DNA of 54,687 nt, from positions 1 through 54,687 of IMG/VR virus record IMGVR_UViG_3300037212_000012; one strand, written 5' to 3'. Below are positions 1 to 32,807 of this stretch, in pieces (positions within the stretch are counted from its first letter, which is position 1; every line of letters begins with the position of its first letter). Below the pieces are notes generated by a model. The model had not been told where the DNA came from, searched no databases, and saw only the letters and a program-made list of their open reading frames with translations. A program made the translations under genes and the position numbers. This DNA comes from a virus (lineage: Duplodnaviria > Caudoviricetes).

Positions 1-127
1 GTGCAAGATCCACCACATGATTTAATCCGCCTTTGGATCGAACTCGAAGTGTATAACCTGCCGTGTGCAAGATCCACCACATGATTTAATCCGCCTTTGG
101 ATCGAACTCGAAGTGTATAACCTGCCG
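1..127. repeat. 64-bp unit, two tandem copies at the window start; same unit at the window end
   Basis: GTGCAAGATCCACCACATG...TATAACCTGCCGT at 1-64 and 65-127 (63 bp). Identical to the copies at 54510-54687. Confidence 0.95.
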
Positions 128-973
128 CTTGGGGGCATAGTAGCTTGTTACGTAGCCTCTAAACATTGGGTGGGTGGTTATGACCTGCCCCAGGTTCAAG
201 TCCCAAGTGGCGGGCAGACTCAGAATCTCAACCAGTTTGTCCACAATTCCCGAATCCTCGCCAAATTTGGTCTTTTCGAGATCCCGCATGACTCCAAGCC
301 AGACCTTTGCCCTTTCGCTTGATTCCTCACAGTTATAACGACATGGGAACCACGGAATTACCTTGAACCCATAATAACGAAGATCTGACCTTATTAGAGG
401 GTCAAAGTTTGAAAGAGATATTGAGCCATCTAGATTCTTTTTGTGGGGCATGGCTAAGGCGGCTGGCATTACGGGATCAAAATTAACCTTGAAGTTCTCT
501 GTAAAGGCCGCGCTGCAACAATCCGGATAGCCCAGGTATCCGCCCATCCTAGCGTGATCACAACCGCCGAGTTTGAGTTCTGCCTTTACGAAGTCCTCGG
601 CTATATCGAGATCGCGAGCCACCACCCCAAATACCATGACATCTGGCCCGAGCCGATCTGTTGGAAAATGGGTGTGAGAGAACCCTTCGTATTGGAGGCT
701 CCGCCTCATTGGCAGAAACGCCAGTTTGTCCCTCATTATTTGGGCTATCTCGTTATCGTAGTTGTGCGGGGATAGGTGGAAGATATTCGCCTCCCTCTTG
801 CCCTGCCTGACCATTTCATACTCACTTTCATAGGCTAAGGTCGCTATTTTTCTCTTTAATCCCACTAAACCATGATCGGGATACTTTGCCATGAAAGCTG
901 AAAATGGTTTTGGATCTGTGATCTGAGTTTTTAAAGTTTCCTGATTTTGATTATCCATATTTACGCCCCCCAT
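86..973 (-). CDS. DUF483-like Cys-rich protein, putative accessory of the radical SAM cassette
   Basis: GGYLGYPDCC..AF and IPWFPCRYNC motifs resemble archaeal DUF483 proteins. Gene abuts or overlaps the end of the rSAM gene; the true start may be the second Met (958). Confidence 0.55.
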   Translation of the reverse strand: MGGVNMDNQNQETLKTQITDPKPFSAFMAKYPDHGLVGLKRKIATLAYESEYEMVRQGKREANIFHLSPHNYDNEIAQIMRDKLAFLPMRRSLQYEGFSHTHFPTDRLGPDVMVFGVVARDLDIAEDFVKAELKLGGCDHARMGGYLGYPDCCSAAFTENFKVNFDPVMPAALAMPHKKNLDGSISLSNFDPLIRSDLRYYGFKVIPWFPCRYNCEESSERAKVWLGVMRDLEKTKFGEDSGIVDKLVEILSLPATWDLNLGQVITTHPMFRGYVTSYYAPKRQVIHFEFDPKAD

Positions 974-2208
974 GAATCACCATGCGGCGAATCTCCGTGA
1001 TCATCGTAATCTCCATGACCGCCTGATTCCGAATCTCCATGCACCTGCTGTCTTGGCTGGCAGGCCGGTTGCTGGTGCCGCTGTTGCTGCTGCGGATATG
1101 GTTCTACCCATTTATTTTTAAGGTAGTAATCTTGATAAAAGTTTGGTACATCTATCGCCAGCCTGCGGCCAGGGTCCATAGCTCTTATGTGACGTTCCAA
1201 GTATTGCAGGAGTGCATAATAAGCCTCGCAGAATTCGGTTTTATTTCTCACGTCGCCGCCTACTCCCTCAGCAGGGCAACCGCCCGCGCAGATTTCAAAA
1301 TATCTGCACCCCTTGCACTGGGTCTGCTTTAGCATCTCTGACCGGACTAAAGTGGCCTGATGGGGTTGGTAGTAATATCCAGACTCAAAGCATCTGTCGC
1401 ACCTGGATAGATTGCCATCCGGCATTATGGTGGTGCATCTGGTCACGAGATAGTCACATCTCGTATAGAGACAGCAATTTAGCCCCTGGCCTTTCAGGTT
1501 TTTCATATTCTCTATGACCACTGCGGGCCGGAACTCATTTGGATGCTCTATATATGCCTGTGCAAATTTGAGAAAGGCTATTTTCAGCTCTTCGGGCGAG
1601 AGTTTATACTTCAACAGATGGCTTGCCTTGCAACTCGGCAGGAACATTTGGTTGTATCTACCATCGCTCTTGGTTTCAATTCCCCACCGAATTAATTCAT
1701 CAATCTTAGAAGGCGATGCATTGAGTTTAGTGAGAACCGTTATGGTGCCCACCTTTATCCCTTCGTCCTTCAGCCACTTTATGTTTTCCTGTAGCCTCTT
1801 TTGGTACTCTCGGTTGGCTTTCTTATCCCTCGGACCTCTTAAGGTATTGAATTTTGCCGGTCCATCTATCGAGACACCAACGCTCTGCATATGATATTCC
1901 TTAATTAACCTGATGTGTTCTGCCGTGAGATTCCAAAGGGCTGTCTGCATTGAGGGTTGACCGCCAACCGACTTTATGGTTTCCAATGAGAACTTAAAAT
2001 CTTCTATTGGCAAACTGGTTACGTCTCCGCCGTGGAGGATAACTTGGGGATGTTCATCCTTGCCCCATTGTTTAGATATGTCGCGCAGGGTAGCCGCCAT
2101 AGCCTCTTTATTATATCTCCCCGGTATGGATGGCTTGTTCTCGTCCTCAAAGCAATATTCACAACCTGTAGGGCAGTCCAACAGCATGTACCATAATATC
2201 GTGTTCAT
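961..2208 (-). CDS. Radical SAM/SPASM-domain enzyme (peptide/protein maturase type) with HGD-repeat C-terminal tail
   Basis: CPTGCEYC (CxxxCxxC), LHGGD, VGVSIDG; SPASM cysteines in IMPDGNLSRC and CKGCRYFEICAGGCP...C; Q-rich linker, then HGD x4. Confidence 0.93.
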   Translation of the reverse strand: MNTILWYMLLDCPTGCEYCFEDENKPSIPGRYNKEAMAATLRDISKQWGKDEHPQVILHGGDVTSLPIEDFKFSLETIKSVGGQPSMQTALWNLTAEHIRLIKEYHMQSVGVSIDGPAKFNTLRGPRDKKANREYQKRLQENIKWLKDEGIKVGTITVLTKLNASPSKIDELIRWGIETKSDGRYNQMFLPSCKASHLLKYKLSPEELKIAFLKFAQAYIEHPNEFRPAVVIENMKNLKGQGLNCCLYTRCDYLVTRCTTIMPDGNLSRCDRCFESGYYYQPHQATLVRSEMLKQTQCKGCRYFEICAGGCPAEGVGGDVRNKTEFCEAYYALLQYLERHIRAMDPGRRLAIDVPNFYQDYYLKNKWVEPYPQQQQRHQQPACQPRQQVHGDSESGGHGDYDDHGDSPHGDSWGA

Positions 2209-2249
2209 CTTATTCCTCGTTTATTATTATCATAATAATCATACTTTCG

Positions 2250-5243
2250 CTAATCGTAGAATGTATTGTCGTGTGGGGTATCCTTGTGCGGTAAGTCGTT
2301 ATGGTTATCTGCGTGAGGCGCATCTCCGTGTGGGATGTCCCTGTGGGGTATTGGATTATCGCTATGCGGTGAATCGGAGTGCGGTGCATCTTCGTGCGGT
2401 ATCCCGCAATCGCAGTGCCAAGACGAATCTTGGAAACTGGCTCCTTCTGAGTTGGCGTGGGCCGTGTTGCCGTGTGGTACTTCTGCCTGTATTACTTTTG
2501 CTGGCGTATTGCACCAGCTTGGGTCACCTGTGCTATCCGAATAGCCATGTTGGGTGAATAGAATCTGATAATCCCAGATAGGCTTATATTCAGGTCCGGG
2601 ACCTTCGTGTGAGCCTGTCACAATTGCATGACACCAGCTAGGATCACATTTTGGGCTTGATTGCTGGCAACCGCTCGGGTCTGGATTCCCTGTTGAGGCG
2701 CTTCCTGTGATAGTTGTGCATTCATCTATGTAGGCACCGTGATCACAATGATCCTGGTTTAAGAAGGGCACTGCGTCTTGGTTTGCGTGGAGCGTGTTGC
2801 CGTGGGGGGTGTAGGGCTGATTGGCATGGTTTGAGAAATCTGGAGTCGGACAATCACATTCATGATCTGCGTGAGGAGTGTCTGAGTGCGGCGTATCTGT
2901 GTGGGCTGGTCCACCATCGTTATAGATAACATCATTGTGAACGATATCGCTATGATGCCAATCATCCGAGTGCGGAGTATCCGAGTGCGGAGAGCCTGCG
3001 CAATCGCAATGGATTGCCTTGTCTGTGAAGGGCACTGAATTCGAATCGTAATGATTATTATCCAAATGAGAGTCTATATGCAGATTGTCATCGGAATAAT
3101 CGGTGTAACCGTCTTCGTAACCTGCGTCTCCATGCTCTACCGCGGGAACATTGAAATGGTCGTCAAAGTCTGGTGAGACTAATGAGGGGTCGTAGCTATT
3201 TTTATGGGGTACTGCCGCCTGAATGACTTTGGCTGCATCGTTGCACCAGGTCGGGTCTAGGGAGGAGTCTATATAAGCAAACTGGTTGAAATCAACCTGC
3301 CCGTCAACCATATGGCACCAACTCGGGCTACATTTCGGATGGCTCGGCGGGCATCCTCCTGAGTAGCCTTGCAGCATGGTGCATTCATCTGTCCAGATCC
3401 CACTGTTACAATGATCCTGGTTTATGAACGGAATGGGATCAGCGTCCGCATGACCACAATCGCAAAAAGGCATATCGGTAAAGCTATCACTATGCGAAAC
3501 ATTGCCGTGGACTATTTCGTCATTATGGCCCCCGTTGTGTTCATCTTGATAAGGTGCATCTCCGTGCGGCACATCATCGTGGTTTGAGTCTCCATGCGGT
3601 GTGTGGTCCCAAGGCGAATCTGCGTAGATATCCTGATAATTATTTTCATGAACCGGGCCGGGCGTATTCGAATGATTGCAAAAGTCTGAATGCTCGATTA
3701 CTTGGTTGGTATCCTGCCAGTTTTGGTGAATCGAGTCTGCAAAAGCTCTGTCGGAGTAGTTTGAAAAGTCTGCAAAAGCTCTGTCGGAGTAGTTTGAGAA
3801 ATCTGAAAATGTCGTATTATTATGGGTGGTATAGTCTGAATGCGCTTGATTTCCAAATGGACTGTCGGCGTGATTCGTATCAATGTGGTATGGGCCGTCG
3901 ATATGCGAGACATCGGAATGGGTAACATCGCTATGATTTGAAAAATCCCCATGACTAGAATCGATGTGGGCGGTATCGCCGTGAGCTCCCGTATGATTAT
4001 AATGAGCCACGTCACTGTGGGAACTATTTTCGTGGGCTAGATCTACATGGGATGATGGGGAATCCGTATGCGGGTCGTTATAATGTCCCGACATGTCGCT
4101 ATGGGGGGTATTCCCATGTGCGTTATCGGTATGCCAGTTATGCTGATAGCTATCATAATACCCATCATTGTGCTGCTGATAAGCGTAATCTACATGGGCC
4201 TGGTTTCCGTGCGGATTCCCGTCATTATGTGCTGTATTGCCGTGGTTTGCGAAATCCGAATGTGAGATATCTCCGTGCGAAGCATCTGTATGTGGCGTGT
4301 CGCCATGATCATTAAAATTGCTAAATGGGGTATCTCCATGACTTGCGGAGTTTGTGTGATCATTGTAATTGCTAAAATCCGTATTTGAGAATGGCGTATC
4401 ATTGTGGTTGGTCCAATCGGAATGTGCACTGCTATTTTCAAATACACTATCGGCATGCGCTATATCATGATGGTCCGAAAAATTTCCAAACGGCGTGTCG
4501 CTATATCCTGGATCGTTAAAATGTGACTGGTCGCTATGATCAGATATATCGAGATGAGCCTGATTTTCGAAAGGTGTATCAATATACTCAGAATCGTTTG
4601 AAAAGGCTACATCCTCATGATAGCCTGCGCTGGCATCATCAACATAATATTCGATGGCATCGGAGTGAGGGGTATCACCATGCTCAACCCCTCCCTGGTC
4701 GGCGTGCGGATTTTCACACCCTTCGTTGAGATGGTGATATGCTTTATATCGGTAACCTTCCACCTCATCTAAATATGCAGAATTGGCATGGGACGAATTG
4801 CACCAACTTGGATCTGATGAGCTTTGATTATGTCCATATTGGAGAAACCGTGTGTGGGTTGCCCCGTCGCCCGGATCATAGCTGCTACATTCTGAAGTTT
4901 TTCCTGACCTTGGGTCGCTGGGCGGACATCCTGGCTGTCCGGTTGATGGGTCTATCCAAGGTTCCCTATCAAGAAGATAGATAGGTACCCATTCGTCTTT
5001 GGGGATACCGCTATTACAATGCTCTGCGTCGCCGTGCGGTGCGTCTAAATGGCCGATTGGGTCGTTTGTGGCTTCGGGACCTCCCGGATCGGATTCTTGA
5101 GCTGGACCGAGACCATCTGCGAAAACGTATGTGTCGTTGTGTGTACCAGAATCGCAATGCGCTACATCTAAGTAGGGAATCTCTGCTACATCTTCATGTG
5201 AGCTATCTAGATGTGCATTGGTCCAACCGATACATTCACCCAT
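2250..5243 (-). CDS. 997-aa His-x-Asp/Asn repeat protein; candidate radical SAM substrate and tail-associated protein
   Basis: About 90 H-x-[DN] motifs by manual count, often 5 residues apart (e.g. PHSDSPHSDNPIPHRDIPHGDAPHAD). Also F/Y/W-x-[DN] motifs and three Cys-rich DPSWC-type modules. Confidence 0.85.
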   Translation of the reverse strand: MGECIGWTNAHLDSSHEDVAEIPYLDVAHCDSGTHNDTYVFADGLGPAQESDPGGPEATNDPIGHLDAPHGDAEHCNSGIPKDEWVPIYLLDREPWIDPSTGQPGCPPSDPRSGKTSECSSYDPGDGATHTRFLQYGHNQSSSDPSWCNSSHANSAYLDEVEGYRYKAYHHLNEGCENPHADQGGVEHGDTPHSDAIEYYVDDASAGYHEDVAFSNDSEYIDTPFENQAHLDISDHSDQSHFNDPGYSDTPFGNFSDHHDIAHADSVFENSSAHSDWTNHNDTPFSNTDFSNYNDHTNSASHGDTPFSNFNDHGDTPHTDASHGDISHSDFANHGNTAHNDGNPHGNQAHVDYAYQQHNDGYYDSYQHNWHTDNAHGNTPHSDMSGHYNDPHTDSPSSHVDLAHENSSHSDVAHYNHTGAHGDTAHIDSSHGDFSNHSDVTHSDVSHIDGPYHIDTNHADSPFGNQAHSDYTTHNNTTFSDFSNYSDRAFADFSNYSDRAFADSIHQNWQDTNQVIEHSDFCNHSNTPGPVHENNYQDIYADSPWDHTPHGDSNHDDVPHGDAPYQDEHNGGHNDEIVHGNVSHSDSFTDMPFCDCGHADADPIPFINQDHCNSGIWTDECTMLQGYSGGCPPSHPKCSPSWCHMVDGQVDFNQFAYIDSSLDPTWCNDAAKVIQAAVPHKNSYDPSLVSPDFDDHFNVPAVEHGDAGYEDGYTDYSDDNLHIDSHLDNNHYDSNSVPFTDKAIHCDCAGSPHSDTPHSDDWHHSDIVHNDVIYNDGGPAHTDTPHSDTPHADHECDCPTPDFSNHANQPYTPHGNTLHANQDAVPFLNQDHCDHGAYIDECTTITGSASTGNPDPSGCQQSSPKCDPSWCHAIVTGSHEGPGPEYKPIWDYQILFTQHGYSDSTGDPSWCNTPAKVIQAEVPHGNTAHANSEGASFQDSSWHCDCGIPHEDAPHSDSPHSDNPIPHRDIPHGDAPHADNHNDLPHKDTPHDNTFYD
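3734..3797. repeat. 33-bp tandem duplication inside the HxD gene (FSNYSDRAFAD x2)
   Basis: AGTCTGCAAAAGCTCTGTCGGAGTAGTTTGA at 3734 and 3767. Confidence 0.9.
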
Positions 5244-5535
5244 TTTTCTTGAACATTTCCTTATAGGCGTTCATCCGCCTCTTGTAGGTTTCCTCGTTTC
5301 CAAGCGATTCGTTTCTTTGGATAACCCTATAATCCTCGATCAATGTTACAATCATTTGAAGCTTTTCCCGAGATATGACACCTTCCTCGATCAAGAAGGT
5401 TATAACAGCCTCGGATTTGATCTCTTCAGACCATAGCCTTTCTTGTAAATTTCTGATCAAAGTGTTTTGATCCGGAGCGGTTGCTTTTGCTTCATCCTTA
5501 GCTTTTGGCAATTTGATTTTAGATTTGCTTACCAT
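5236..5535 (-). CDS. Small helical hypothetical protein (possible chaperone)
   Basis: 99-aa ORF between the tail-tip gene and the HxD gene, overlapping the HxD start. Confidence 0.6.
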   Translation of the reverse strand: MVSKSKIKLPKAKDEAKATAPDQNTLIRNLQERLWSEEIKSEAVITFLIEEGVISREKLQMIVTLIEDYRVIQRNESLGNEETYKRRMNAYKEMFKKNG

Positions 5536-5587: not shown

Positions 5588-8500
5588 TCAAGCTCCCTTA
5601 CTAAATATAGTGTCGATGAAAATTTGCCCTTGTATCGATGCGGAGACAGCACAATGACAGGGTTGACCTGGGAAAGACTTGTTTGCCAATCCTAATTTGA
5701 GAGTATACGTGCCAACCGCGTTTACATAATCCGGATTTAATATTACCGGTCCAACCGTTCTTTCGCTGTCCGAAATTATCGCAGGCGATCCAACGACCTC
5801 CTTGAATACTCCTTTTGTATCCCCGATATATATACTTAGATACATTTCTGGGTCGGCTGGGTCGGGTGCTGGACCTGCCTTGAGGCTGTTTGCCTTTAAT
5901 AGCTCTTCAGTGGCGGGATTGCCAAAATTGTAATTTCCGACATTTATTATTAGAGGGACCGGTTGACCGTTCTTATTCGTCGTGCCTATTGTGAGATAAT
6001 CGTGCAAGGCATCATTCGTAAATTCTTCAGTCTCAAAAGCTTCAATTTCGTGGTCGTGGTCTGCTGGCGAAACGTCCACCGCGCCCGATGCCGGACCGAT
6101 ATCACCCGAGAGTGGATGCTTATGTATGGCTGAAGCTACGTCTATGGCCTCGACGTTGACTGATGTTACTACCTCTTTTGATGCCGATCCTATATCGGTG
6201 ATGACATCAACGCTGCGACTTATGACATTGAAAAAGTTCTTGCTACAATTGACTGCCGTACAGCAGTCCGCGGTTAGTTCAGCAATTGCCGAATCTGTCG
6301 ATAAAGATAATTGCCCTGCTACCAGATCAGAATTTACGTCGATGTTCTGAATAGCATTGTCAGTGTCGTCGCATGTCCCAATTTCTAATGAGTTGGTGTG
6401 AGTATGCAATGCTACCGCACAAGAGACCGATGCCGCCGAAGGTAGGGTCTTGAGCGATGCTACCGGATGCTTATGAACCGCGGAAGGCGTAGAAGCGCCG
6501 CCCCCACCTCCGCTCGAACCGTCGCCTCCGCCGCCTCCGCCCTGGCTGCCTGTTGGGGAGGAAACGGTAGCATTCGATCTATTGATTGTGATATTCAATA
6601 CCAGAGATTCAACGTTAAGAGTCTTATCCGGGATGTCGAAAGTGGTCTCAAGCTCAAGGTTGTTATCAAGATTATCCTGGCTCCAAGACCAACTAAAGGG
6701 CTGGATTGTGTCGGTCTGATGCTTGATATATTTGTCAACCATATTTTTTAGGGCCTGCCAGACCTGTTCAGGCTCAATAAGCTTATCTCCCGCCTTGATG
6801 GTCTGCTTGGTTCCATCTCCAATCTGAATGTCTAGCTCCTGGACCCTTAGACAGTTCTCATAAGCAAGGCGCTTGTTTCCAACCTGGAGATTTGCCAGAA
6901 CATAAATCTCGTCGCCTAGATTGCGGGTATCCAGAATACCGCTTTCGCTCTTTACAACTAGCGGAGCTTCAAATGTAATATTCTGGCTTGGGAGCATCTT
7001 GTCGGAGAGGTAATTGCTGGCGAATTTCTCGGCCATTGACTCGCTATGTTGTCCAGGATCGGCATATCGAACGAACCGACCGCCTCTGCCCATATTAACG
7101 TGCTCCCCAGCTATTACGGCTGTGCTGCCCTGGCCGAAACCGGCCACTATGACGCCATTGACCTGATAACGAGAGTCGGCCAATGTGAGATCCTTGATAG
7201 CGAGCAGATTATCGCTGTCCAGATAACGCCCGGCTGGATATGATTTGCTGCCCCTTCCGGCGTGGTCCATGACATCGATGTAGCAGATCCCTCCCCTATA
7301 GGATTCTTCGAATTCATAACCCGCACAGGTCAGGAGGTTAAAGATCACTTCGTAAGGGAGATCCCCGTTTGCGGTCTCCCAATAGAGAATATTTTCCGTT
7401 AGGGCGTCGCCTGTGATCTGGCCTAATCTAATCGGTACTATGCCTTCCCATATATTCGGGACGCTGATTATGTGGTAGTAGGGGCTCGTTTGGTCTGCTA
7501 GCCTGATGTATAGTGTTTTATTATTACTATCATGGTAATAACCTGAATTTGTGCCCGTCTCTAGGTCGTCCAAGGAGAGCCTTGTTATCAGGGCGGTACC
7601 GTCTGAGTACATCTTTGAGATCGTGTAAGGTAATCCTGAATAAATCCATTTATATACGCCTTTTTCTGTGTTTTCGTCATCCCATAACTCATAATATATA
7701 CAACTATTCATTATATATATCATGCCTGGAATATTGTTATTATTGACGGGCTCGGAGCTATTTAATATTTCTGTAAATGATACATTCTGCCAGATGTATT
7801 TTCCTAAGTAGAGTCCACCCTTGGGCGGATTGGGTTTGGCGACCTCCAGGAAGCCAAAAAGATCGGCTAAATATGTGCCATTCTCTTGCCATTGGCATGA
7901 GCGAGAGATGCCATTAAATCGCCTTTTGTCACCTGCTATGTAGATCGTACATAGGCAGTCCTCCGGAATGGGTTCACCGAGGTACATTTTAGCCTCGGAT
8001 ATCTGGCCGTATTTCCAGCTAATATGGCCTGAGACGATATCAGGATTTAGCGCCCCTCCCTGGACCGTTGTAACCTCTATCCAATCGTCTTTTGAGACCG
8101 AGACGGGCAGGTTATAATATCTGGATTGGGGCCAACGCAGATCCAATATCTTACAAGCCCATTGCTCGGAGTGCCACTTAAGGGACAGATCTCCTCGTGT
8201 AGAACCGCCAGAAAGCCACTTGAGAGATAACCGTCGATTGGTGAATTGTTCTGAAGGCCACTCCAGGGTGAGAACTTTAGTAGCGTGTGCATTTTCGGTA
8301 AGATTGGACCAGGTAAAATACCCATATATGCCGCCGTAATCGAAACTCTGTGAAAAAACGCTTATTGTAGGCCATTGAATTGTTAGATGTCTTCCTGTTG
8401 GGCCTCCCATAGACCAGATACATGTTAGATCCTTGGCAGTCCATTGTGAGGAGGGCCATTTTAAGCTGAGGAGTCTTGCTGCTCCCTGCTTTGAGGGCCA

Positions 8501-9094
8501 TTTTAAGCTGAGAAGACGAGAAGCCCATTGCTCGGAGTGCCATTGCAGGGTTAATGATTTTAAGACTTGTTGCTGAGCATACCATTGCAAGCTCAGTTCT
8601 TTGGCGGACCATTGTGAGGAAGGCCATTTTAAGGACAGAATATGAGATATCCACTGTACTGAAGCCCACTTTAGACTCAGTAATGCGGATATAAAATTCT
8701 CTGAAGGCCATTGCAGGCTCAACGATTTTAAAACTCTTTGTTGAGATGTCCATTGTAGGTTTAATGATTTTAAGACTTGTTGCTGAGCATACCATTGCAA
8801 GCTCAGTTCTTTGGCGGACCATTGTGAGGAAGGCCATTCTAGCGTGAGCGTATTTGCGATGAATTGCTCTGCGTCCCAGAAGAACATCAGAGATTTAGCG
8901 ATGCTCCCCCCTGACGACCACAAAACCGTTAGACTTTGTCCTGCGGTTCCTCCGGCGCACCACCCAAAAGTCAAGTCCTTAGAGAGCCATTGTGCGGAAT
9001 GCCATTTTAGGCTAAGGCTCCTTGACATGTGCGCAGCTTCTTGGGGTTGAGACCAAGTGAAATGGCCGTATATTCCGCCGTAATCGCTTGCCAT
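5588..9094 (-). CDS. Tail tip/hub protein with N-terminal 14-aa Trp repeats and C-terminal HxH fibre motifs
   Basis: Directly follows the tape measure gene. Central segment (NGVIVAGFG...NLGDEIYV...LRVQEL) resembles siphovirus tail hub proteins. HKH/HTH/HKH/HDH motifs near the C-terminus. Confidence 0.7.
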   Translation of the reverse strand: MASDYGGIYGHFTWSQPQEAAHMSRSLSLKWHSAQWLSKDLTFGWCAGGTAGQSLTVLWSSGGSIAKSLMFFWDAEQFIANTLTLEWPSSQWSAKELSLQWYAQQQVLKSLNLQWTSQQRVLKSLSLQWPSENFISALLSLKWASVQWISHILSLKWPSSQWSAKELSLQWYAQQQVLKSLTLQWHSEQWASRLLSLKWPSKQGAARLLSLKWPSSQWTAKDLTCIWSMGGPTGRHLTIQWPTISVFSQSFDYGGIYGYFTWSNLTENAHATKVLTLEWPSEQFTNRRLSLKWLSGGSTRGDLSLKWHSEQWACKILDLRWPQSRYYNLPVSVSKDDWIEVTTVQGGALNPDIVSGHISWKYGQISEAKMYLGEPIPEDCLCTIYIAGDKRRFNGISRSCQWQENGTYLADLFGFLEVAKPNPPKGGLYLGKYIWQNVSFTEILNSSEPVNNNNIPGMIYIMNSCIYYELWDDENTEKGVYKWIYSGLPYTISKMYSDGTALITRLSLDDLETGTNSGYYHDSNNKTLYIRLADQTSPYYHIISVPNIWEGIVPIRLGQITGDALTENILYWETANGDLPYEVIFNLLTCAGYEFEESYRGGICYIDVMDHAGRGSKSYPAGRYLDSDNLLAIKDLTLADSRYQVNGVIVAGFGQGSTAVIAGEHVNMGRGGRFVRYADPGQHSESMAEKFASNYLSDKMLPSQNITFEAPLVVKSESGILDTRNLGDEIYVLANLQVGNKRLAYENCLRVQELDIQIGDGTKQTIKAGDKLIEPEQVWQALKNMVDKYIKHQTDTIQPFSWSWSQDNLDNNLELETTFDIPDKTLNVESLVLNITINRSNATVSSPTGSQGGGGGGDGSSGGGGGASTPSAVHKHPVASLKTLPSAASVSCAVALHTHTNSLEIGTCDDTDNAIQNIDVNSDLVAGQLSLSTDSAIAELTADCCTAVNCSKNFFNVISRSVDVITDIGSASKEVVTSVNVEAIDVASAIHKHPLSGDIGPASGAVDVSPADHDHEIEAFETEEFTNDALHDYLTIGTTNKNGQPVPLIINVGNYNFGNPATEELLKANSLKAGPAPDPADPEMYLSIYIGDTKGVFKEVVGSPAIISDSERTVGPVILNPDYVNAVGTYTLKLGLANKSFPGQPCHCAVSASIQGQIFIDTIFSKGA
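8551..8838. repeat. 78-bp exact direct repeat (8551-8628 and 8761-8838) in the Trp-repeat region
   Basis: TTAATGATTTTAAGACTTG...GAAGGCCATT twice, offset 210 bp = 5 x 14 codons. Confidence 0.92.
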
Positions 9095-14617: not shown

Positions 14618-15880
14618 ATGAGAATAAAGATAGAGGATATCAAGAGGGGAGAACGCCTGCGGCCCATCGACCGGTCAAAGGTCAAGGATCTAGCCGACAG
14701 CATCAAAGAGGTTGGACTGATTCACCCCATTGTGCTTACGCCTGATAACGTATTAGTCTCAGGTGAACATCGCATAGAGGCCATGTTACTGAATGGCGAA
14801 ACTGAGATAGAGTACACCGTCAAGGATTACGACGCTTTGCATAAAACGCTCGCTGAAATTGATGAGAATATCCAACGAGCAGAGCCTGAATACCTCTCAA
14901 GGGGCCGTATGTTGCTCAAGCGAAAGGAACTTTGGGAAGTTCTGCATCCCGAATCTGTATCAAGAGGCGGCGACCGAAAATCGCCAGACTACCAGGAGAA
15001 GAAGCAGGCTGGAAAACTCCCTAGCTTTAGGACCGATACCGCAAAGAAGCTCAGCATAGCTCCCAAGACCGTCGATAGAGAAGTCATGATAGCCCAGAAA
15101 CTCAGCCCTGTGGTCCAGGAGGAGGTTAGAAAAGTAGACCTACCGAAGAAAGATGCTCTGCTACTAATCAAGCATGCCCCTACTGAGCATCAGCAGATGG
15201 CGATTCTTAAACGTATGGAAGTTGGAAAGGCCAAAGATGTTAAAGATGCTTACAAGCAAATCGAAAAAGAAGATATGGCCGCCAAAGGTCGCGACATAGA
15301 GGGCGACGAGCTGGCAACTTTCCAAGAGGGCGACCCTATAGAATTGCTGAAAATGATCAATAATGAATCATTTAAGGCAATATTGACCTGCATATCGGAA
15401 GAATCTAAGATAGAAATTCTCTTGCGCGAGGGATCACGCATATTAGAACCTGAGGGGGTTCTCGCTCTGATGATACCGCCTTCCCTAATTGGGGCGGTCA
15501 TAAAGGCATCATGCCCAGTGGAAATAAGATACTACTGGACCATAGCCGACACCCTGGCAAAAACTATTGATGCCCTTAATGTCACCTCGGCTTGGATGCC
15601 CGTTATGATCTACGTTAAGGATGGTCAGGCCTTGAAACTCACCGCCGACTGCATCACCAAGGCTATAGACGCCCTGACACGAGAAGAGGACCACGCCATA
15701 CAGCTCATAGGCAAGATATCCAAGCCCGGGGATACCATCTTGGACCCATTCATGGGCCAGACATTACAGACCTACTTGGGGCCTGCGGTGGGCCGCAAAT
15801 TCGTGGGTTTCGGCAATAAGGGTATGATAGATCTAGCGAAAGGTCATTTGCATAGAGTCAAGGGCTTGGTAGCCATCTAA
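14618..15880 (+). CDS. ParB/Srx-like N-terminal domain fused to a degenerate N6/N4 DNA methyltransferase-like domain
   Basis: LADSIKEVGLIHPIV, SGEHRIEA, EIDENIQR, HTH; C-terminal PGDTILDPFMG...GRKFVG; no DPPY catalytic motif. Confidence 0.8.
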   Translation: MRIKIEDIKRGERLRPIDRSKVKDLADSIKEVGLIHPIVLTPDNVLVSGEHRIEAMLLNGETEIEYTVKDYDALHKTLAEIDENIQRAEPEYLSRGRMLLKRKELWEVLHPESVSRGGDRKSPDYQEKKQAGKLPSFRTDTAKKLSIAPKTVDREVMIAQKLSPVVQEEVRKVDLPKKDALLLIKHAPTEHQQMAILKRMEVGKAKDVKDAYKQIEKEDMAAKGRDIEGDELATFQEGDPIELLKMINNESFKAILTCISEESKIEILLREGSRILEPEGVLALMIPPSLIGAVIKASCPVEIRYYWTIADTLAKTIDALNVTSAWMPVMIYVKDGQALKLTADCITKAIDALTREEDHAIQLIGKISKPGDTILDPFMGQTLQTYLGPAVGRKFVGFGNKGMIDLAKGHLHRVKGLVAI

Positions 15881-19892: not shown

Positions 19893-21395
19893 TCAGGCCC
19901 CTTTGGATTTCTTAGCCTCGGCTACCTTAGCATCCAGCCTGGCATTTATCGCGTTATCCTGTCGCTTATCACAGGCCGCCTCAAGCTCATCGGCTAGGCA
20001 GGCATTGGCCTCCAGATCCTCGATTGTCTTGGCTGCTTCCATCGCTGCCTTAGCAGCCACCAGAGCTTCGGAGACCGACAGGAGTCTTACAATGAGACTG
20101 ATGCTGTAGCGGATCATGCCGCCAATCTTTACACCCATCTGGACCAGCCACATATTAGGTATGAGGTTCTTGTCATGGCCATACATCTTGACCAAAACGA
20201 GATTTGTTATCTCGCCGGTCTTCTGGTCCTTCAGGCCAAATGTCAGGCCGTCGCCATTATTAAATTTTCCTTCAATGTTGGTCTTGGGGTAAAGCTGCAT
20301 CTTCGAAATCTTCCCGAGACTCTTGTCATTCAGGATGAGGTCGTATTTCACATTAGAGTAGCCAAAAGGCGCGATGGAGATCTGGCCTGCTGCCTGAAGG
20401 TTTATGTCAGCCTTCGCGACGGGTTGCAAGGTCACGGCTAAAGTCGTGACCTGCTTATCTAGGACATCGAAAGCGATATCCTGCGAGACATAACCATCTT
20501 TCTGGATGGTTGCCTTGTAACTGCCTGCTACTAGGGCAATATCGCCGTCTGTGGCGCCCACTTTAGCCCCATTAACCAGGACATCAGCATTTAGGCCACC
20601 TGCATTGATGTGAACGCCTGTCTGAGCTACTGGCGGAACGGGCGGTATTGCCGTAACGGTGTAGACATAACCTGCATAATCCCGGAAGATGCCGCAGACT
20701 CCATAGGCTACCCAGGCATAACCGTCGAATCCCCAGGAAGTACCCCAAGAGTTCTTAACCAGCCAAGCACCCCGGACGTCATCATATCCTACGGCGCTCT
20801 GACAGTGGCCGCCCGCATAATCACCGTACTCAGGGGAGTAAACAGCTTCGGAATCAACATCAAAATAATCATCGTCGACATCCATAGCAAACTGAACTGC
20901 TTGCCCTGCCGCGATTGCTGCTTTTGCGGCTGCATCGGAAGTGATACGAGTAGCCGAGAGAATCTTAATCCTAGTATTGTTTGCACATGGTAAGGCATCG
21001 CCACCATAGGGCCAACAATCTTCTGTGCACACTCCGGTAGACTGAAGCCTTGCGTTTGCTTTCTCAAGCGTGGCTCCATTCGCGCAGGTGCCTATCGTGG
21101 CGAACAGGTCCGCCTCGGAGAGGTCGAGAACTTCTGTTTTGTTCTGGTCAGCGAACTTCTTTGTAGTCTCAAAGGTAGCGCACGAGCCAAACGCCACACA
21201 TGAACCACAATCTCCCTGGTCCTTTATGGGGGTGGCATAATCTTTCAGAGTGAATGCTACCGGTGTAGCTCCGAACCTATGCCCTTTGATGTTCTTATCT
21301 GCGAGATCTTCTTTTGTGGTTCTTTTCAGATCATCAGTGATGATGAGTCCCAATCTACGGACTTTTCCGCTTCCTTTCTTTGGTTCTCCCAACAT
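19893..21395 (-). CDS. Papain-family (C1A) cysteine protease with PEGA-like domain; candidate endolysin
   Basis: DQGDCGSCVAF (Gln/Cys), GGHCQSAVGYDD (His), WLVKNSWGTSWG.DGY (Asn); PEGA-like ADVLVNG..VG.T...GSYKATIQKDGY. Confidence 0.88.
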   Translation of the reverse strand: MLGEPKKGSGKVRRLGLIITDDLKRTTKEDLADKNIKGHRFGATPVAFTLKDYATPIKDQGDCGSCVAFGSCATFETTKKFADQNKTEVLDLSEADLFATIGTCANGATLEKANARLQSTGVCTEDCWPYGGDALPCANNTRIKILSATRITSDAAAKAAIAAGQAVQFAMDVDDDYFDVDSEAVYSPEYGDYAGGHCQSAVGYDDVRGAWLVKNSWGTSWGFDGYAWVAYGVCGIFRDYAGYVYTVTAIPPVPPVAQTGVHINAGGLNADVLVNGAKVGATDGDIALVAGSYKATIQKDGYVSQDIAFDVLDKQVTTLAVTLQPVAKADINLQAAGQISIAPFGYSNVKYDLILNDKSLGKISKMQLYPKTNIEGKFNNGDGLTFGLKDQKTGEITNLVLVKMYGHDKNLIPNMWLVQMGVKIGGMIRYSISLIVRLLSVSEALVAAKAAMEAAKTIEDLEANACLADELEAACDKRQDNAINARLDAKVAEAKKSKGA

Positions 21396-31357: not shown

Positions 31358-31954
31358 TTAATATTGCCCATATTGCCCACCCACCACCGGAGCACTGCCT
31401 ACGATTTCATAAACAGGCTGTTCATCAGGATGTGCGAAGGTCAACATAACTGCATCGCCTCTATCGGGGCTTCGTTTGAGCCTTTTTTTTGTATCTTCTT
31501 TGGGCTCGATCTGTATTTGCCCTCTTGGATTATATTTGAACGTCGGTGCTGCCAGATCCGCCAAAAGTTCATCATCGGGTGGTAATAGCAGCGGTTCTGG
31601 GTTCTTAGGATCTAGCGCTTCACGAAGGGTCCACCATAGTTCTGCCCTAAGATTTGCGTAAAGCCGGTTGCCTTTCTCATCTACGATGCCCGAAGGCTCA
31701 GCCACATTTACACCATGAACGGGCAAGTCATTTGACTTTAAGATATCAACCACACCCGCCCCTAAACCTATCGAGTCTACATTTATGAGGTCTGGTTTGT
31801 GGATTCTCGCGAGTTCCTGAATTCTGCCCGCCACTTCGACGTTATCTAGCTTCTCCATTGTGATAAGTTCAAGGATTCGATTATTATCGCGAATCGCTAC
31901 TACACTTAAATCGTCTCCGAAGCGAGCAATATCTGCCCCCATTACTAAAGCCAT
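31358..31954 (-). CDS. terL: Terminase large subunit, C-terminal nuclease domain (separate ORF)
   Basis: GADIARFGDDLSV, VDSIGLGAGVVD, NLRAELWW, SPDRGDAVML. Confidence 0.9.
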   Translation of the reverse strand: MALVMGADIARFGDDLSVVAIRDNNRILELITMEKLDNVEVAGRIQELARIHKPDLINVDSIGLGAGVVDILKSNDLPVHGVNVAEPSGIVDEKGNRLYANLRAELWWTLREALDPKNPEPLLLPPDDELLADLAAPTFKYNPRGQIQIEPKEDTKKRLKRSPDRGDAVMLTFAHPDEQPVYEIVGSAPVVGGQYGQY

Positions 31955-32676
31955 AGAATCACTTTAAACCTTTTTGAGTATAATAAGCTGTTAATTAGCT
32001 CAATCCAGTAACCTTTGTTATAATTAGTTTTAGTATGGCACGAACCACATAGCGGAACTAATGCCCACTTCTTCCCATTGCAGCCCTGCTCACGGTCATA
32101 ATCAACATGGTGAACATGTAACTTTCTCTTGAGTTCTGATTCGGGCCTCTCACATATCAAGCATCCCCTATTAAATTCATCTCTAATTGAGTCCTTGAGC
32201 GTCCTATTGAATTTTGGGCAGTAAGGGGTGAAAGATGTCCCACCATTCCAATTAGGGTTTTCTTCTCCAACCATTTTACCTTTTTTTGATGCAATCATTT
32301 TGTCCCTCGTCTCTGGGTTCTTCATGGGGTTGTTTTCGAGATTTCTCTTCCTCAAGACGATGTTCTGTTTTCCATGACCTTTATTTGCCTTTCCAAACTG
32401 ATTCCCGACCAGTTGCTTTGCATATTTGGCTATAGAAGGAGAATCCTCTTTGGTCAACCCTTTATTCCAAGCTATCACACCTTTATGATTTCGGCTCATT
32501 CTTTCTCGGACTTCTTGAGAATTGGTATGTCCATAATTGGGATTTCCTGAACCTATCCAACTCAGATTTCGGCATTTTGCAGAACAGTAAACCCTTTCAC
32601 TTTTGTTTCTACGCATCTCAGATTCATATCGCTCGAATTCTGTACCACATTGAAAGCAAATAAATTTAGCTTTCAT
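31945..32676 (-). CDS. HNH homing endonuclease with NUMOD-like repeats
   Basis: CFQC...YCSAKC; GEENPNWNGG; LHVHHVDYD...LVPLCGSCHTKTN. Likely start 32676 (ATGA overlap). Confidence 0.88.
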   Translation of the reverse strand: MKAKFICFQCGTEFERYESEMRRNKSERVYCSAKCRNLSWIGSGNPNYGHTNSQEVRERMSRNHKGVIAWNKGLTKEDSPSIAKYAKQLVGNQFGKANKGHGKQNIVLRKRNLENNPMKNPETRDKMIASKKGKMVGEENPNWNGGTSFTPYCPKFNRTLKDSIRDEFNRGCLICERPESELKRKLHVHHVDYDREQGCNGKKWALVPLCGSCHTKTNYNKGYWIELINSLLYSKRFKVILWL

Positions 32677-32807
32677 TTTTTCGTTCTCCGTTCCTTGTTC
32701 CAATAGCGTGACTTGCATTTTGGATTTGGGCATATATCGGGCAACTTATCGCTGCGGGGGTGCCACTTATGACCACAGCGTTTACACTCTAAAGTTGGTA
32801 GATCCAT
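32673..32807 (-). CDS. 44-aa Zn-ribbon microprotein (not in ORF track)
   Basis: MDLPTLECKRCGHKWHPRSDKLPDICPNPKCKSRYWNKERRTKK. Confidence 0.75.
   Translation of the reverse strand: MDLPTLECKRCGHKWHPRSDKLPDICPNPKCKSRYWNKERRTKK

Follow-up and report, generated by a model that had tools for sequence, protein, structure and literature searches.

Phages probably modify one of their tail proteins chemically in a way that has not yet been described. We found a conserved three-gene phage cassette, encoding a repeat protein, a radical SAM (rSAM)/SPASM enzyme and a DUF483-like protein, and we favour, with somewhat more belief than doubt, the reading that it performs a post-translational modification of the cyclophane type on a tail-associated repeat protein used at the tail tip or as a fibre. 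We infer the substrate role of the repeat protein, the type of bond and the location of the product in the virion. The aromatic-x-Asp/Asn repeat cassette recurs in many phages beyond the single virus record described here, including cultured Thermus phages, and if our reading is true, dozens of covalent rings would lie along a giant viral protein, compared with the one to three motifs of short triceptide peptides.

The cassette and its repeat protein

The window, which is the whole stretch of DNA analysed (54,687 nt), covers a complete virus record whose ends carry a direct repeat of 114 bp, so that gene order can legitimately be read across the junction. Translation confirmed the coordinates, sizes and tight packing of the four minus-strand ORFs described in an earlier note on this DNA, which are joined by a 13-nt overlap, a 41-nt gap and an 8-nt overlap. 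The features discussed below are:

1–114, no strand: direct terminal repeat, identical to 54574–54687 (114 bp)
86–973, minus strand: DUF483-like partner gene, 295 aa
961–2208, minus strand: radical SAM/SPASM enzyme gene, 415 aa
964–1044, minus strand: C-terminal tail of the rSAM, residues 389–415, with four H-G-D motifs like those of the repeat protein
2250–5243, minus strand: acidic repeat protein gene, presumed substrate, 997 aa
5236–5535, minus strand: small ORF overlapping the start of the repeat-protein gene, 99 aa
5588–9094, minus strand: tail protein (by synteny) directly upstream of the cassette, 1168 aa
53121–54260, minus strand: 379-aa gene after the cassette, across the terminal-repeat junction (conserved synteny)

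The 99-aa ORF is an uncertain member of the cassette, its sole Pfam match being weak (MCM winged-helix, E 0.059), and BLASTP (E ≤ 1e-5) found no homologue of it in the syntenic relatives.

The 997-aa protein has a pI of 4.55 (171 Asp+Glu against 18 Lys+Arg) and contains 149 [HFYW]-x-[DN] motifs, most of them at a five-residue spacing. Compared with 1000 shuffles of its own sequence, H-x-[DN] occurs 92 times (23.2 ± 4.0 expected, shuffle maximum 36), [FYW]-x-[DN] 57 times (19.9 ± 3.8 expected, maximum 33) and the period-5 signature [DN]-x-x-H-x-[DN] 49 times (4.9 ± 2.2 expected), and H-x-[ST] is depleted (1 observed, 17.5 expected). The earlier estimate of about 90 H-x-[DN] and many F/Y/W-x-[DN] motifs was therefore accurate, both counts lying far above the shuffles. 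A His, Phe, Tyr or Trp stands two residues before 149 of the 213 Asp/Asn residues. There are also 28 cysteines and four x-C-D-C motifs, and a Cys module occurs three times, at about residues 60–150, 590–680 and 815–915; most repeat arrays across the family are without Cys. Alignment with the closest relative (P0001, the window protein, against P0002; 45% identity) showed 95 of 106 aromatic, 95 of 108 Asp/Asn and 19 of 21 Cys positions to be kept, and the middle residue of the motif to be 43% identical. Retention of about 90% of the aromatic and Asp/Asn positions in aligned motifs, at 45% overall identity, points to selection at the level of the motif.

No family in Pfam, NCBIfam, PHROG or PADLOC matched the 997-aa protein, PHROG and Pfam searches of the array-bearing proteins mostly returned nothing, and no leader was visible when its N-terminus was read. 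The ESMFold model (Atlas) has a pLDDT of 0.29 and a pTM of 0.16, and no autonomous fold is predicted. It is very unlikely, in our judgement, that the array stays unmodified and forms a fibre module of beta-helical or His/Asp metal-binding type, with the rSAM and DUF483-like proteins acting on DNA or a host molecule. His and Asp are indeed classic metal ligands, the fibre tips of phage T4 bind iron via His-x-His motifs, and the five-residue Asp/Asn period resembles that of pentapeptide-repeat proteins. However, the Pfam pentapeptide families gave no match at E ≤ 0.1, the low pLDDT also speaks against such a module, and His is freely replaced by Phe, Tyr or Trp, as in the L004 partner (3 H-x-[DN] among 30 motifs), which would be intolerable in a metal site.

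Association of enzyme, array and DUF483-like partner

Membership of the rSAM family was set at 140 bits or more against the family profile, which gave 49 loci and 44 distinct rSAM sequences, including the window and one locus reached from the repeat side (L008). A motif-rich ORF (at least 14 motifs per 100 aa, same strand, within 3 kb) was present near 27 of the 44 distinct enzymes and near 22 of the 32 having at least 700 nt of upstream DNA. A separate DUF483-like ORF was found at 25 of the 30 loci with at least 800 nt downstream, the domain being fused to the rSAM in three of the five others. At control loci of other SPASM enzymes from the same scans, both motif-rich and DUF483-like ORFs numbered 0/119, and control ORFs of at least 100 aa (n = 3557) reached a maximum of 11 motifs per 100 aa. 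Searching from the repeat side yielded seven loci, six with an intact family rSAM directly downstream and one with fragments only: P0009 led to one viral locus with the rSAM in this position, and P0010 to six, where five had the intact rSAM followed by a DUF483-like ORF and the sixth had the fragments. The joint occurrence of H-x-D protein, rSAM and DUF483 that the earlier note had proposed to look for is therefore recurrent in many phages. Against the link, 10 of the 32 loci with enough upstream DNA lack an ORF above the threshold. Three of these (L037, L042, L050) have weaker arrays of 8–11 motifs, in L028 the array sits on the enzyme itself, which terminates in 13 motifs, L052 has four HxD motifs only, in the enzyme's own tail, and no array was present in the flanking DNA examined for L030, L039, L041, L097 and L098. 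An HxD tail, defined as at least two HxD within the last 60 residues, was carried by 16 of the 41 family enzymes whose C-terminus is complete and by 0 of 111 control SPASM enzymes.

The 295-aa protein scored 20.2 bits on DUF483, under the Pfam cut-off of 25, and we keep the label DUF483-like from the earlier note because Atlas clusters and the GenBank annotation of the homologue in Thermus phage Cumys also support it. Conserved in this protein are E51, R60, H100, LGYPxCC (147–153), D166-P167, Y200 and PCxxxC (210–215). Its AF2 model (pLDDT 90.2) had no clear solved fold among its matches, with a best Z of 6.7 (2guk) and a Z of 4.9 for NleE. A model of its complex with the rSAM scored 0.76, against 0.01 for the best of three controls, with at least 69% of contacts agreeing between runs and a partner pLDDT of at least 82; 58 of 80 solved complexes came up to this mark, as did 2 of 110 mismatched pairs, a calibration that holds only roughly here as the model was made with our own alignments. 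The DUF483-like protein is thus predicted to dock on the SPASM domain of the rSAM. The two are fused in L096, L097, L098, L041, P0075, P0092, P0137 and P0204, and DUF483 domains are joined to methyltransferase domains in some viral clusters. Comparative genomics strongly supports a functional link between the rSAM family, the repeat arrays and DUF483, and the proposal of the earlier note that the two proteins act on the repeat protein, its presumed substrate, is strongly supported by co-occurrence, controls, fusions, HxD tails and the complex model.

Both genes are present in the cultured Thermus phages Cumys and phiMa, at about 29–30% (rSAM) and 28% (DUF483 protein) identity to the window. 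The Cumys genes run in the order repeat protein, rSAM (with an HxD tail) and DUF483 protein, downstream of baseplate and tail collar fibre genes. Upstream of the rSAM, Cumys_13 has 343 aa with 54 H-x-[DN] and an N-terminal repeat domain, whereas the window protein has 997 aa with Cys modules. The rSAM and DUF483 of the Thermus module are common to the window, and the repeat protein was compared in Cumys. In Thermus phage phiLo, no motif-rich ORF occurs among the annotated neighbours, and the DUF483 copy is annotated as a methyltransferase. A 2024 preprint named the 'rSAM module' of Cumys and phiMa, described the third gene as 'unknown', reported copies in prophages as well as fusions of DUF483, and guessed a role in DNA modification from cyanobacterial homologues beside deazapurine genes (10.1101/2024.08.14.607894). 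The word 'histidine' appears 0 times in the main text of that preprint, so the repeat motif is not discussed there; the view that this is not a described system holds to that extent, but the trio itself had been noticed (10.1101/2024.08.14.607894). The DNA-modification proposal favours an unmodified array, against which stand the tie between enzyme family and arrays, seen from the enzyme side as well as from the repeat side and absent from the controls, the HxD tails and the enzyme fused to an array, and the SPASM type of the enzyme, that of peptide and protein maturases. The cyanobacterial locus L100 also carries a 375-aa protein with 57 H-x-[DN].

Tail-module context

The 1168-aa protein is 31–32% identical, over about 1070–1150 aa, to its counterparts directly before the cassette in L002, L005 and L094; in L014, where the contig end truncates the ORF, the match is shorter (917 aa). 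The L002 copy matches phrog_6079 'tail protein' (4.6e-7) and is preceded by a tape measure protein (phrog_1533, 7.8e-94); the window protein reaches only 0.0024 on phrog_6079. On the other side, the 379-aa protein, which has no PHROG family and no family name, shows 28–35% identity to the ORF after the DUF483-like gene in L002, L005 and L094, and also to an L014 ORF about 1.5 kb beyond that gene. Gene order puts the cassette behind the tape measure and tail protein genes, and its place in the tail module is strongly supported. The tail setting suggested earlier thus agrees with the synteny, while the labels 'tail-tip', 'Dit-like' and 'fibre' found no family match.

The N-terminal domain of P0009-type arrays gave 24 PDB and 207 BFVD matches to tail-hub proteins (E ≤ 1e-3), at a model pLDDT of 56 and low TM-scores (0.15–0.33). 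Arrays of another clade are fused to a tail-hub-like domain and immediately follow long ORFs that occupy the place of the tape measure gene; elsewhere the fusion is to small fibre-like N-terminal domains. None of the searches of Pfam, NCBIfam, PHROG or PADLOC identified the 997-aa protein as a structural one. These fusions and the conserved tail gene blocks argue against the modified protein being a non-virion effector produced in infection or lysogeny (for instance in superinfection exclusion or counter-defence, like the bacterial HXS effector) or a released RiPP-like product, which we consider improbable. The window protein is also without a visible leader and strongly acidic, with H-x-[ST] depleted, whereas HxS repeats are basic, and the PADLOC models gave nothing beyond a generic rSAM resemblance to viperins. 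An effector would fit with HXS, where an rSAM-matured His-x-Ser protein is able to keep phage DNA from entering (PMC13128918), and with the temperate lifestyle of phiMa-like phages (10.1101/2024.08.14.607894). There are also cellular loci, L096 on a chromosome of 6.3 Mb and L100 with a twin-arginine-like leader, and the L035 array protein ends in a membrane anchor.

Candidate chemistry and known maturation systems

The translation and family alignment place the cluster motif of the rSAM at C12-x3-C16-x2-C19, and because it begins at residue 12 the enzyme is without an N-terminal (RRE-type) extension. H59-G-G-D and the full SPASM pattern (C251-x13-G-x4-C270, C298-x2-C301-x5-C307-x3-C311, C327) are present, and the 415-aa enzyme scores 48 bits on Pfam Radical_SAM (cut-off 29.5) and 27.4 on the NCBIfam SPASM domain (cut-off 27), in keeping with all the features first read from the sequence. 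Over 28 family members, the best NCBIfam matches were AmcB (1.2e-28), DynA (3.1e-28), anSME (5e-26), TIGR04083 and YhhB; HxsB was a weak match (best E 1.8e-11, 20 of 28 members). Among solved chains, anSME (9e-26) was the sole full-length relative, and the triceptide synthase ChlB scored 1e-18. The window rSAM lies well under all curated family cut-offs (AmcB 60.8 against 425 bits, DynA 66.7 against 450, anSME equivalog 61.8 against 349). On these profiles it represents a new family whose nearest kin are anSME and the maturases that form cyclophanes. The triceptide-type chemistry suggested in the earlier note is therefore favoured by AmcB, DynA, YhhB and ChlB, and qualified by the failed cut-offs and by anSME, whose reaction is an oxidation, not a crosslinking.

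In the mechanism that we propose, the substrate would be an acidic chain, not folded by the structure predictor, with about 150 aromatic-x-Asp/Asn motifs separated mostly by two-residue linkers, the aromatic being mostly His, but also Phe, Tyr or Trp. The rSAM, with no peptide-recognition domain of its own, would act in complex with the DUF483-like protein, which probably handles the substrate or performs a second step. Most likely, hydrogen would be abstracted from the beta-carbon of Asp/Asn and this carbon joined to the aromatic ring two positions earlier, giving a three-residue cyclophane per motif, as in triceptides. With such a ring formed at each successive motif, the flexible chain would become a rigid row of small covalent rings that withstands heat and proteases. 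It would serve at the tip of the tail or as a fibre, in the window virus as a separate giant protein.

The same substrate could instead undergo a different chemistry, with the rSAM and DUF483-like protein altering Asp/Asn or the aromatic without a three-residue ring, which is possible but which we hold to be unlikely. The options are anSME-like beta-carbon oxidation, epimerisation, hydroxylation, an HxsA-like +8 Da carbon insertion, or Cys-to-Asp thioethers in the Cys modules. Such options gain from anSME, which is the closest full-length solved relative and takes whole proteins as substrates, from the 28 cysteines in conserved modules, and from the DUF483–methyltransferase fusions and the phiLo annotation. 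Further support comes from HxsB/HxsC, reported to give +8 Da, not -2 Da, at one site, the S-H-R-S-S motif of HxsA (PMC13128918), and from CrpC, which makes ranthionine links on a Cys-rich protein (PMC13692751). On the other hand, all four aromatics share one repeat position with Asp/Asn exactly two later, the layout that defines triceptide motifs (PMC11499958), Cys is absent from most arrays, and of the five best profiles all but anSME belong to crosslink-forming peptide maturases or TIGR04083.

Among known systems, anSME (PDB 4K36) resembles the window rSAM in having no RRE and in aligning over its full length as the closest solved structure by profile, and acts on a folded protein at the beta-carbon; unlike anSME, the window rSAM has no sulfatase nearby, and its neighbouring presumed substrate is a repeat array. 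The dynobactin and darobactin maturases DynA and DarE link the ring of an aromatic residue to the beta-carbon of the second residue after it, Trp-x-Asn being one such case. DynA, the second-best NCBIfam match, aligns over nearly its full length, but the substrates of both are short antibiotic precursors, unlike that of the window.

The HXS system (HxsA–D) is similar in that an rSAM and a small partner mature a repeat protein of His-x-small-residue type in phage–bacterium conflict, but it is a host defence with two rSAMs, as opposed to one phage-encoded rSAM, and its substrate has five basic HxS repeats and a peptidoglycan-binding domain in place of acidic HxD/N arrays (PMC13128918). CrpC/CrpA of Methanococcus voltae likewise pairs an rSAM/SPASM enzyme with a sizeable adjoining protein substrate, but CrpC has an RRE and forms Cys thioethers on a Cys-rich protein, whereas the arrays of the window family are largely Cys-free (PMC13692751). 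The triceptide maturases (XyeB, GrrM/OscB, FxsB, YhhB, AmcB, ChlB, HtkB and HaaB) share with the window a SPASM rSAM adjoining a substrate with aromatic-x-x motifs, and rank with the best-scoring profiles; for HtkB and HaaB, crosslinking of His-C2 to X3-C-beta within H-x-x motifs is established (PMC11499958). The window rSAM differs from them in falling under all curated cut-offs, in its lack of RRE/leader logic and in its DUF483 partner, and its family has presumed substrates of 200–1400 aa with tens to about 150 motifs, compared with one to three in short triceptide peptides, in the setting of a viral tail gene block.

The cassette and its repeat protein

ORF reading found the four tightly packed minus-strand genes claimed by the earlier note at 86-5535 of the window, at exactly the positions claimed:

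86-973, minus strand, DUF483-like ORF, 295 aa
961-2208, minus strand, radical SAM (rSAM) enzyme, 415 aa
2250-5243, minus strand, repeat protein ORF, 997 aa
5236-5535, minus strand, 99-aa ORF

Taken in order of coordinate, successive genes overlap by 13 nt, lie 41 nt apart and overlap by 8 nt. The 997-aa protein contains 13.7% Asp, 10.8% His and 10.6% Ser, and its calculated pI is 4.55, with 171 acidic versus 18 basic residues. About 90 H-x-[DN] and many F/Y/W-x-[DN] motifs had been claimed for it; we counted 92 and 57, respectively, more than in any of 1000 shuffles of its sequence, from which the expected values were taken.

Motif counts in the 997-aa repeat protein and in shuffles of its sequence
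Motif; observed; expected; shuffle maximum
H-x-[DN]; 92; 23.2 +/- 4.0; 36
[FYW]-x-[DN]; 57; 19.9 +/- 3.8; 33
[DN]-x-x-H-x-[DN] (period 5); 49; 4.9 +/- 2.2; 11
H-x-[ST]; 1; 17.5; 30

Two adjacent spacings, H-[DN] and H-x-x-[DN], are rarer than expected, and 149 of the 213 D/N residues are preceded by a His or aromatic residue two positions earlier, giving 149 [HFYW]-x-[DN] motifs. The 28 Cys residues belong to one module present in three copies and to four x-C-D-C motifs. No match to the protein was found in Pfam (E<=0.1), NCBIfam, PHROG or PADLOC. It could not be assigned to the pentapeptide-repeat proteins either, as no Pfam model matched at E<=0.1 and no confident beta-helix was obtained, the Atlas ESMFold model being essentially unfolded (pLDDT 0.29, pTM 0.16). 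Judging from this model, the array is predicted not to fold alone.

One close relative (P0002, 45% identity) retains an aromatic residue at 95 of 106 positions, D/N at 95 of 108 and Cys at 19 of 21, with the middle motif residue only 43% identical. As the aromatic and D/N positions are kept and the residue between them varies, the motif itself is under selection. Among array proteins located beside homologous enzymes, the dominant aromatic differs widely, H-x-[DN] accounting for 3 of 30 motifs in locus L004 and for 27 of 39 in locus L005. Such variation argues for an aromatic-x-D/N definition of the motif and against a simple metal site, and the L004 protein is difficult to reconcile with a rival explanation in which the repeat protein is an unmodified metal-binding fibre and the enzymes act on DNA.

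Co-occurrence of the three genes

Loci were gathered from 6 viral contigs, 80 metagenome contigs and 80 species genomes, and all their ORFs were scored with the family profile. The viral contigs were scanned with a 12-sequence rSAM alignment; a scan of viral contigs with the single rSAM sequence found nothing. Family membership, set at 140 bits or more, was reached in 49 loci with 44 distinct enzyme sequences, including the window and L008, a locus reached from the repeat side. An ORF rich in the motif, defined as 14 or more aromatic-x-[DN] motifs per 100 residues, lies on the same strand no more than 3 kb from 27 of the 44 distinct enzymes, nearly always ending a few bases ahead of the rSAM start; among the 32 whose upstream DNA spans 700 nt or more, 22 have one. 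Of the ten exceptions, L028 carries the array on its own enzyme, L052 has HxD motifs, four in number, in the enzyme tail only, and L037, L042 and L050 have small upstream ORFs containing 8-11 motifs; L030, L039, L041, L097 and L098 have no array within the available locus DNA. Thirty loci have 800 nt or more of sequence downstream; in 25 of them the enzyme is followed by a DUF483-like ORF, and three of the other five are fusions. By comparison, the 119 control loci from the same scans, which encode other SPASM enzymes, contained no rich ORFs and no DUF483-like ORFs, and their ORFs of at least 100 aa (n=3557) reached a maximum of 11 motifs per 100 residues. The co-occurrence that the earlier note had proposed checking is borne out on both sides of the enzyme.

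Searches from the repeat side led back to the same enzymes. Repeat homologue P0009 yielded one viral contig, with a family rSAM directly downstream, and P0010 yielded six viral loci, five with an intact family rSAM and a DUF483-like ORF directly downstream and the sixth with rSAM fragments only; P0007 and P0008 yielded no viral loci. P0007 and the rSAM homologue P0049 have the same sources, the longest contig being 113181 for both, which hints that they lie on one contig. We consider it very probable that the repeat protein, the rSAM enzyme and the DUF483 protein form a functional unit.

Individual loci vary in layout. At L179:10484-11249, beside an array protein, the family rSAM is split into three short ORFs, which may reflect a decayed copy or an assembly error. 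Locus L095 encodes a 129-aa Cys-rich protein with C-x-x-C-x-x-C-C (2124-2513) between the repeat protein and the rSAM, and a 282-aa ORF, glycosyltransferase-like by sequence reading (583-1431), upstream of the repeat-protein gene; these may be extra tailoring genes. The 1022-aa protein at L035:7948-11016 has an HxD array at its N-terminus and a hydrophobic anchor at its C-terminus, with a long middle part between them, and its gene comes after the rSAM and DUF483-like genes instead of before. On a 6.3-Mb bacterial chromosome (L096:3674-10007), a 1412-aa protein ending in P-H-[VI]-D-T type repeats is followed by a 679-aa rSAM-DUF483 fusion, and L100 encodes a 375-aa leader-bearing protein with 57 H-x-[DN]. 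L096 and L100 are cellular versions of the system.

A tblastn search of 50,697 deposited phage genomes located the enzyme and its partner together in the Thermus phages Cumys, phiMa and phiLo. The gene order in Cumys is baseplate genes, 'tail collar fiber protein', two hypothetical proteins, 'rSAM protein' and 'DUF483-domain protein'; the 343-aa hypothetical protein just before the rSAM (Cumys_13) contains 54 H-x-[DN], and the rSAM itself ends in an HxD tail. No rich ORF was found among the annotated neighbours of the phiLo rSAM, and that enzyme carries a long HxD tail. Two IS605 OrfB-type transposase fragments lie directly upstream of the phiLo rSAM (L181, record 150661-153832), at the usual position of the repeat protein, and the phiLo DUF483 homologue is annotated as a methyltransferase.

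The preprint on Cumys (10.1101/2024.08.14.607894) describes a three-gene 'rSAM module' which recurs in phages and prophages, mentions that DUF483 occurs fused to methyltransferase or rSAM domains and proposes a DNA modification of unknown kind as the role of the module; 'histidine' and 'mass spectrometry' have 0 occurrences in its main text. It was the only result of a whole-word literature search for DUF483 with 'radical SAM'. Within the literature covered, no paper tying phage HxD arrays to rSAM was found, and nothing relevant on phages, rSAM and tails or crosslinks. The earlier view that this is not a described system is therefore correct in part: the gene trio is already in print, in the preprint, but within that main text and the literature covered, the repeat motif and the protein-modification reading are not. 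Since the enzyme pair is present in cultured, non-pathogenic Thermus phage-host pairs, with the full trio in Cumys at least, the question is directly testable.

The enzyme and its DUF483-like partner

Enzymes of the SPASM subfamily have a C-terminal seven-Cys motif which binds two auxiliary clusters. The window enzyme has the cluster motif C12-x3-C16-x2-C19 and H-G-G-D at residues 59-62, scores 48 bits against the radical SAM superfamily model PF04055 (Pfam gathering cut-off 29.5) and contains the SPASM Cys set C251-x13-G-x4-C270, C298-x2-C-x5-C-x3-C311, C327, which is invariant in 28 homologues; its TIGR04085 score is marginal (27.4, cut-off 27). The cluster motif begins at residue 12, so the enzyme has no N-terminal recognition domain. 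All four features previously claimed for it (CxxxCxxC, HGGD, SPASM and no N-terminal extension) were confirmed. Against the curated cut-offs of NCBIfam, the enzyme scored far below every specific model.

Scores of the window rSAM enzyme against specific NCBIfam models
Model; score (bits); cut-off
AmcB (triceptide); 60.8; 425
YhhB (triceptide); 51.9; 445
GrrM (triceptide); 35.1; 310
FxsB (triceptide); 24.6; 370
Dynobactin maturase DynA NF041298; 66.7; 450
anSME TIGR03942; 61.8; 349
TIGR04083, methanogen peptide-modifying rSAM; 72.2; 300

Over 28 family members, the best NCBIfam matches were AmcB (1.2e-28), DynA (3.1e-28) and anSME (5e-26), then TIGR04083 and YhhB; HxsB is not among the best 25 of the 35 families matched by the window enzyme and matches weakly across the family. 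The best solved structure was anSME (9e-26, full-length alignment), with the triceptide synthase ChlB second (1e-18, N-terminal part only). Because all specific cut-offs are missed and the best matches are the AmcB, DynA and anSME profiles and the anSME and ChlB structures, the enzyme is best placed, from such profile comparisons, as a new family within the SPASM peptide/protein-maturase radiation. The profile placement suggested by the earlier note thus brought out AmcB, DynA, anSME and YhhB among the nearest families, but assigned the enzyme to none of them, with HxsB weak.

The C-terminus of the window enzyme carries four H-G-D motifs, a feature absent from the earlier note. At least two HxD motifs occur in the last 60 residues of 16 of the 41 family enzymes with a complete C-terminus, compared with 0 of 111 control SPASM enzymes. 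At L028:1570-2877, the C-terminus of a family rSAM is itself an array of 13 H-G-D motifs, and the 1.5 kb upstream contain no separate repeat protein; this enzyme may be an enzyme-substrate fusion.

The DUF483-like protein matches PF04467 with 20.2 bits (gathering cut-off 25) over residues 128-167 only. PF04467 is found in 16-40% of the members of its nearest Atlas clusters, which are mostly viral, some being fused to methyltransferase domains, and its Cumys homologue is annotated as a DUF483-domain protein. In an 18-sequence alignment E51, R60, H100, LGYPxCC, D166-P167, Y200 and PCxxxC are invariant or nearly so. Its AF2 model is confident (pLDDT 90.2), and no solved fold was found for it by Foldseek at E<=1e-3; the best VIA-align scores (Z 6.7 to the uncharacterised 2guk, Z 4.9 to the Cys methyltransferase NleE) are in a commonly seen range, and the profile had 0 matches to PDB sequences at E<=1. 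As no clear fold emerged, we do not name an enzymatic activity for this protein. Its profile has 2575 relatives among 1.84 billion cluster representatives at E<=1e-3, 1217 at 1e-10 and 215 at 1e-30, and four of the best 150 of the 2575 are rSAM-DUF483 fusions; such fusions are also seen in loci L096, L097, L098 and L041. Complex prediction for the window rSAM and DUF483-like protein gave 0.76, compared with 0.01 for the best of three controls; of 80 solved complexes, 58 score this high, as do 2 of 110 mismatched pairs, a calibration which is only rough as our own alignments were used. The runs share at least 69% of contacts, with partner pLDDT of at least 82, and place the SPASM region of the rSAM (residues 254-322) against the N- and C-terminal strands of the partner. 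The prediction supports binding between the two proteins.

The array is probably the substrate of this enzyme pair, because the trio travels together in both search directions with clean controls, because the enzymes often carry the same motif and one is fused to an array, and because the enzyme belongs in a peptide/protein-maturase branch and the array is predicted not to fold alone.

Tail context, proposed chemistry and known systems

The window record, 54,687 bases long, is complete, with a direct terminal repeat measured at 114 bp, and its remaining genes are of tailed-virus type: a terminase fragment, an HNH endonuclease, a Mu-F-like head protein and long tail-type ORFs, with a weak major-head match. 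At 31945-33728 (minus strand), the terminase large-subunit fragment (302 aa; phrog_2, 3.5e-25) covers profile positions 265-468 of 807 only and adjoins the HNH endonuclease gene; the terminase gene may be split or interrupted. A 500-aa protein among the head-tail and tail genes (19893-21395, minus strand) has a papain-family cysteine protease domain (PF00112, 4.4e-28) and a PEGA domain, and could process virion proteins. A transposase-like gene (43846-44967, minus strand; phrog_506, 1.1e-45) is overlapped by a 402-aa ORF on the opposite strand (43861-45069, plus strand). Two ParB-like nuclease or methyltransferase-type genes lie at 14618-15880 (plus strand) and 42195-43346 (minus strand), the former being among the few plus-strand genes and breaking up the tail block. 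MAG labels on related contigs are Dehalococcoidia and Pirellulales, labels which are unreliable for short contigs; an archaeal host, prompted by the DUF483 and TIGR04083 matches, was dropped for lack of evidence.

Gene order around the cassette is common to the window and loci L002, L005, L014 and L094, in which the cassette is preceded by a homologue of the window 1168-aa protein (31-32% identity, up to 1146 residues) and followed by homologues of window genes 53121-54260 and 52343-52957. The same order of flanking homologues in four relatives confirms the gene order across the terminal-repeat junction. In L002, a tape measure protein (phrog_1533, 7.8e-94) precedes the 1058-aa homologue of the 1168-aa protein, itself a match to PHROG 'tail protein' (4.6e-7). 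This places the cassette, which the earlier note had put in the tail operon, within a tail block of siphovirus type. The repeat protein in these four loci is 228-253 aa long, and the window version is therefore about four times larger. The 1168-aa tail protein (5588-9094, minus strand) belongs to no known family; its N-terminal ~300 residues consist of ~20-residue tandem units of the L-S-L-K-W-P-S-x-Q-W type, and it also has a Gly-rich stretch. No relatives of it or of the portal-position protein were found among 50,697 deposited phage records.

The array of a second clade (L008, L174-L176) is the C-terminal half of a 709-870-aa protein, which in L008 and L174 comes after a long ORF at the tape-measure position; these long ORFs have no PHROG match, so they are 'tape measure' by position only. 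A third group (L006, L007, L177, L178 and Cumys) has short repeated N-terminal motifs and then the array. P0009-type carriers had no Pfam or PHROG match, and ten array-bearing proteins gave nothing against these databases except weak tape-measure-like matches for P0003 and P0011. The poor AF2 model of the L008/P0009 N-domain (pLDDT 56) had 24 PDB matches at E<=1e-3, with TM-scores of only 0.15-0.33, all to tail, baseplate-hub or spike proteins of phages, contractile injection systems or type VI VgrG, and 207 BFVD matches at E<=1e-3, also with low TM-scores, including 'Phage protein D', '43 kDa tail protein' and 'Minor tail protein'. The matches of this low-confidence model, which concerns P0009-type carriers and not the window protein, are almost exclusively tail-hub, gpD or gp27-like; the fold search changed a first reading as 'Dit-like' to 'tail-hub-like'. 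On balance, we lean towards a virion location of the repeat protein; the competing explanation is a non-virion effector, and PADLOC detected only a generic viperin similarity in the cassette.

The triceptide bond joins a ring carbon to a C-beta, with a loss of 2 Da per motif. His-C2 to C-beta bonds are documented in triceptides (PMC11499958). By analogy, the most likely first step here would be hydrogen abstraction at the D/N beta-carbon, which would then be coupled to the ring carried by the residue two positions earlier. Crosslinking appears the most likely reaction because the motif layout is exactly triceptide-like (PMC11499958) and because crosslink-forming maturases are among the best profile matches; the cyclophane bond itself we propose tentatively, as a little less than an even prospect. 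Other chemistry on the same substrate is a rival, with precedents in anSME-type oxidation, in the +8 Da change reported for HxsA (PMC13128918) and in the thioethers made by CrpC (PMC13692751).

A possible, if doubtful, extension of the crosslinking reading is that phages build a tail tip or fibre part from a 'poly-cyclophane' protein, modified by an rSAM-DUF483 holoenzyme. A ribosomal chain would then carry three-residue carbon-carbon macrocycles in succession, up to ~150 of them, the HxD tail of the enzyme would serve as built-in substrate or docking strand, and the system would occur widely among phages, thermophilic phages included, and also in some surface proteins of bacteria. Such a chain, if real, would far exceed any known RiPP-like product in size and amount to a new biological material made rigid by covalent bonds.

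The known targets of radical-SAM maturases are short peptides and a few enzymes; the rSAM described here is tied to large structural-type viral proteins with tens to ~150 target motifs in each chain. The modification, if confirmed, would represent a new kind of post-translational chemistry in phage virion assembly, provide a function for DUF483, whose profile has the reach described above, lead to reinterpretation of the Thermus phage 'rSAM module' and offer a natural route to heat- and protease-stable stapled polypeptides.

Triceptide synthases have a neighbouring substrate with aromatic-X-X motifs, as does the window enzyme, with 149 [HFYW]-x-[DN] next door, and the motif-rich neighbour is conserved across the loci of the rSAM family. 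The HXS system differs in having His-x-Ser repeats in its effector, whereas H-x-[ST] occurs once in the window repeat protein against 17.5 expected, and in having an HxsB/HxsC rSAM pair plus HxsD, whereas the window cassette has one rSAM gene only. The cassette therefore resembles triceptide or HXS-type rSAM maturation, yet by membership tests belongs to none of the named families, and it is distinctive in that a putative obligatory DUF483 partner replaces the RRE, the putative substrates carry tens to ~150 motifs and the genes lie in phage tail modules.
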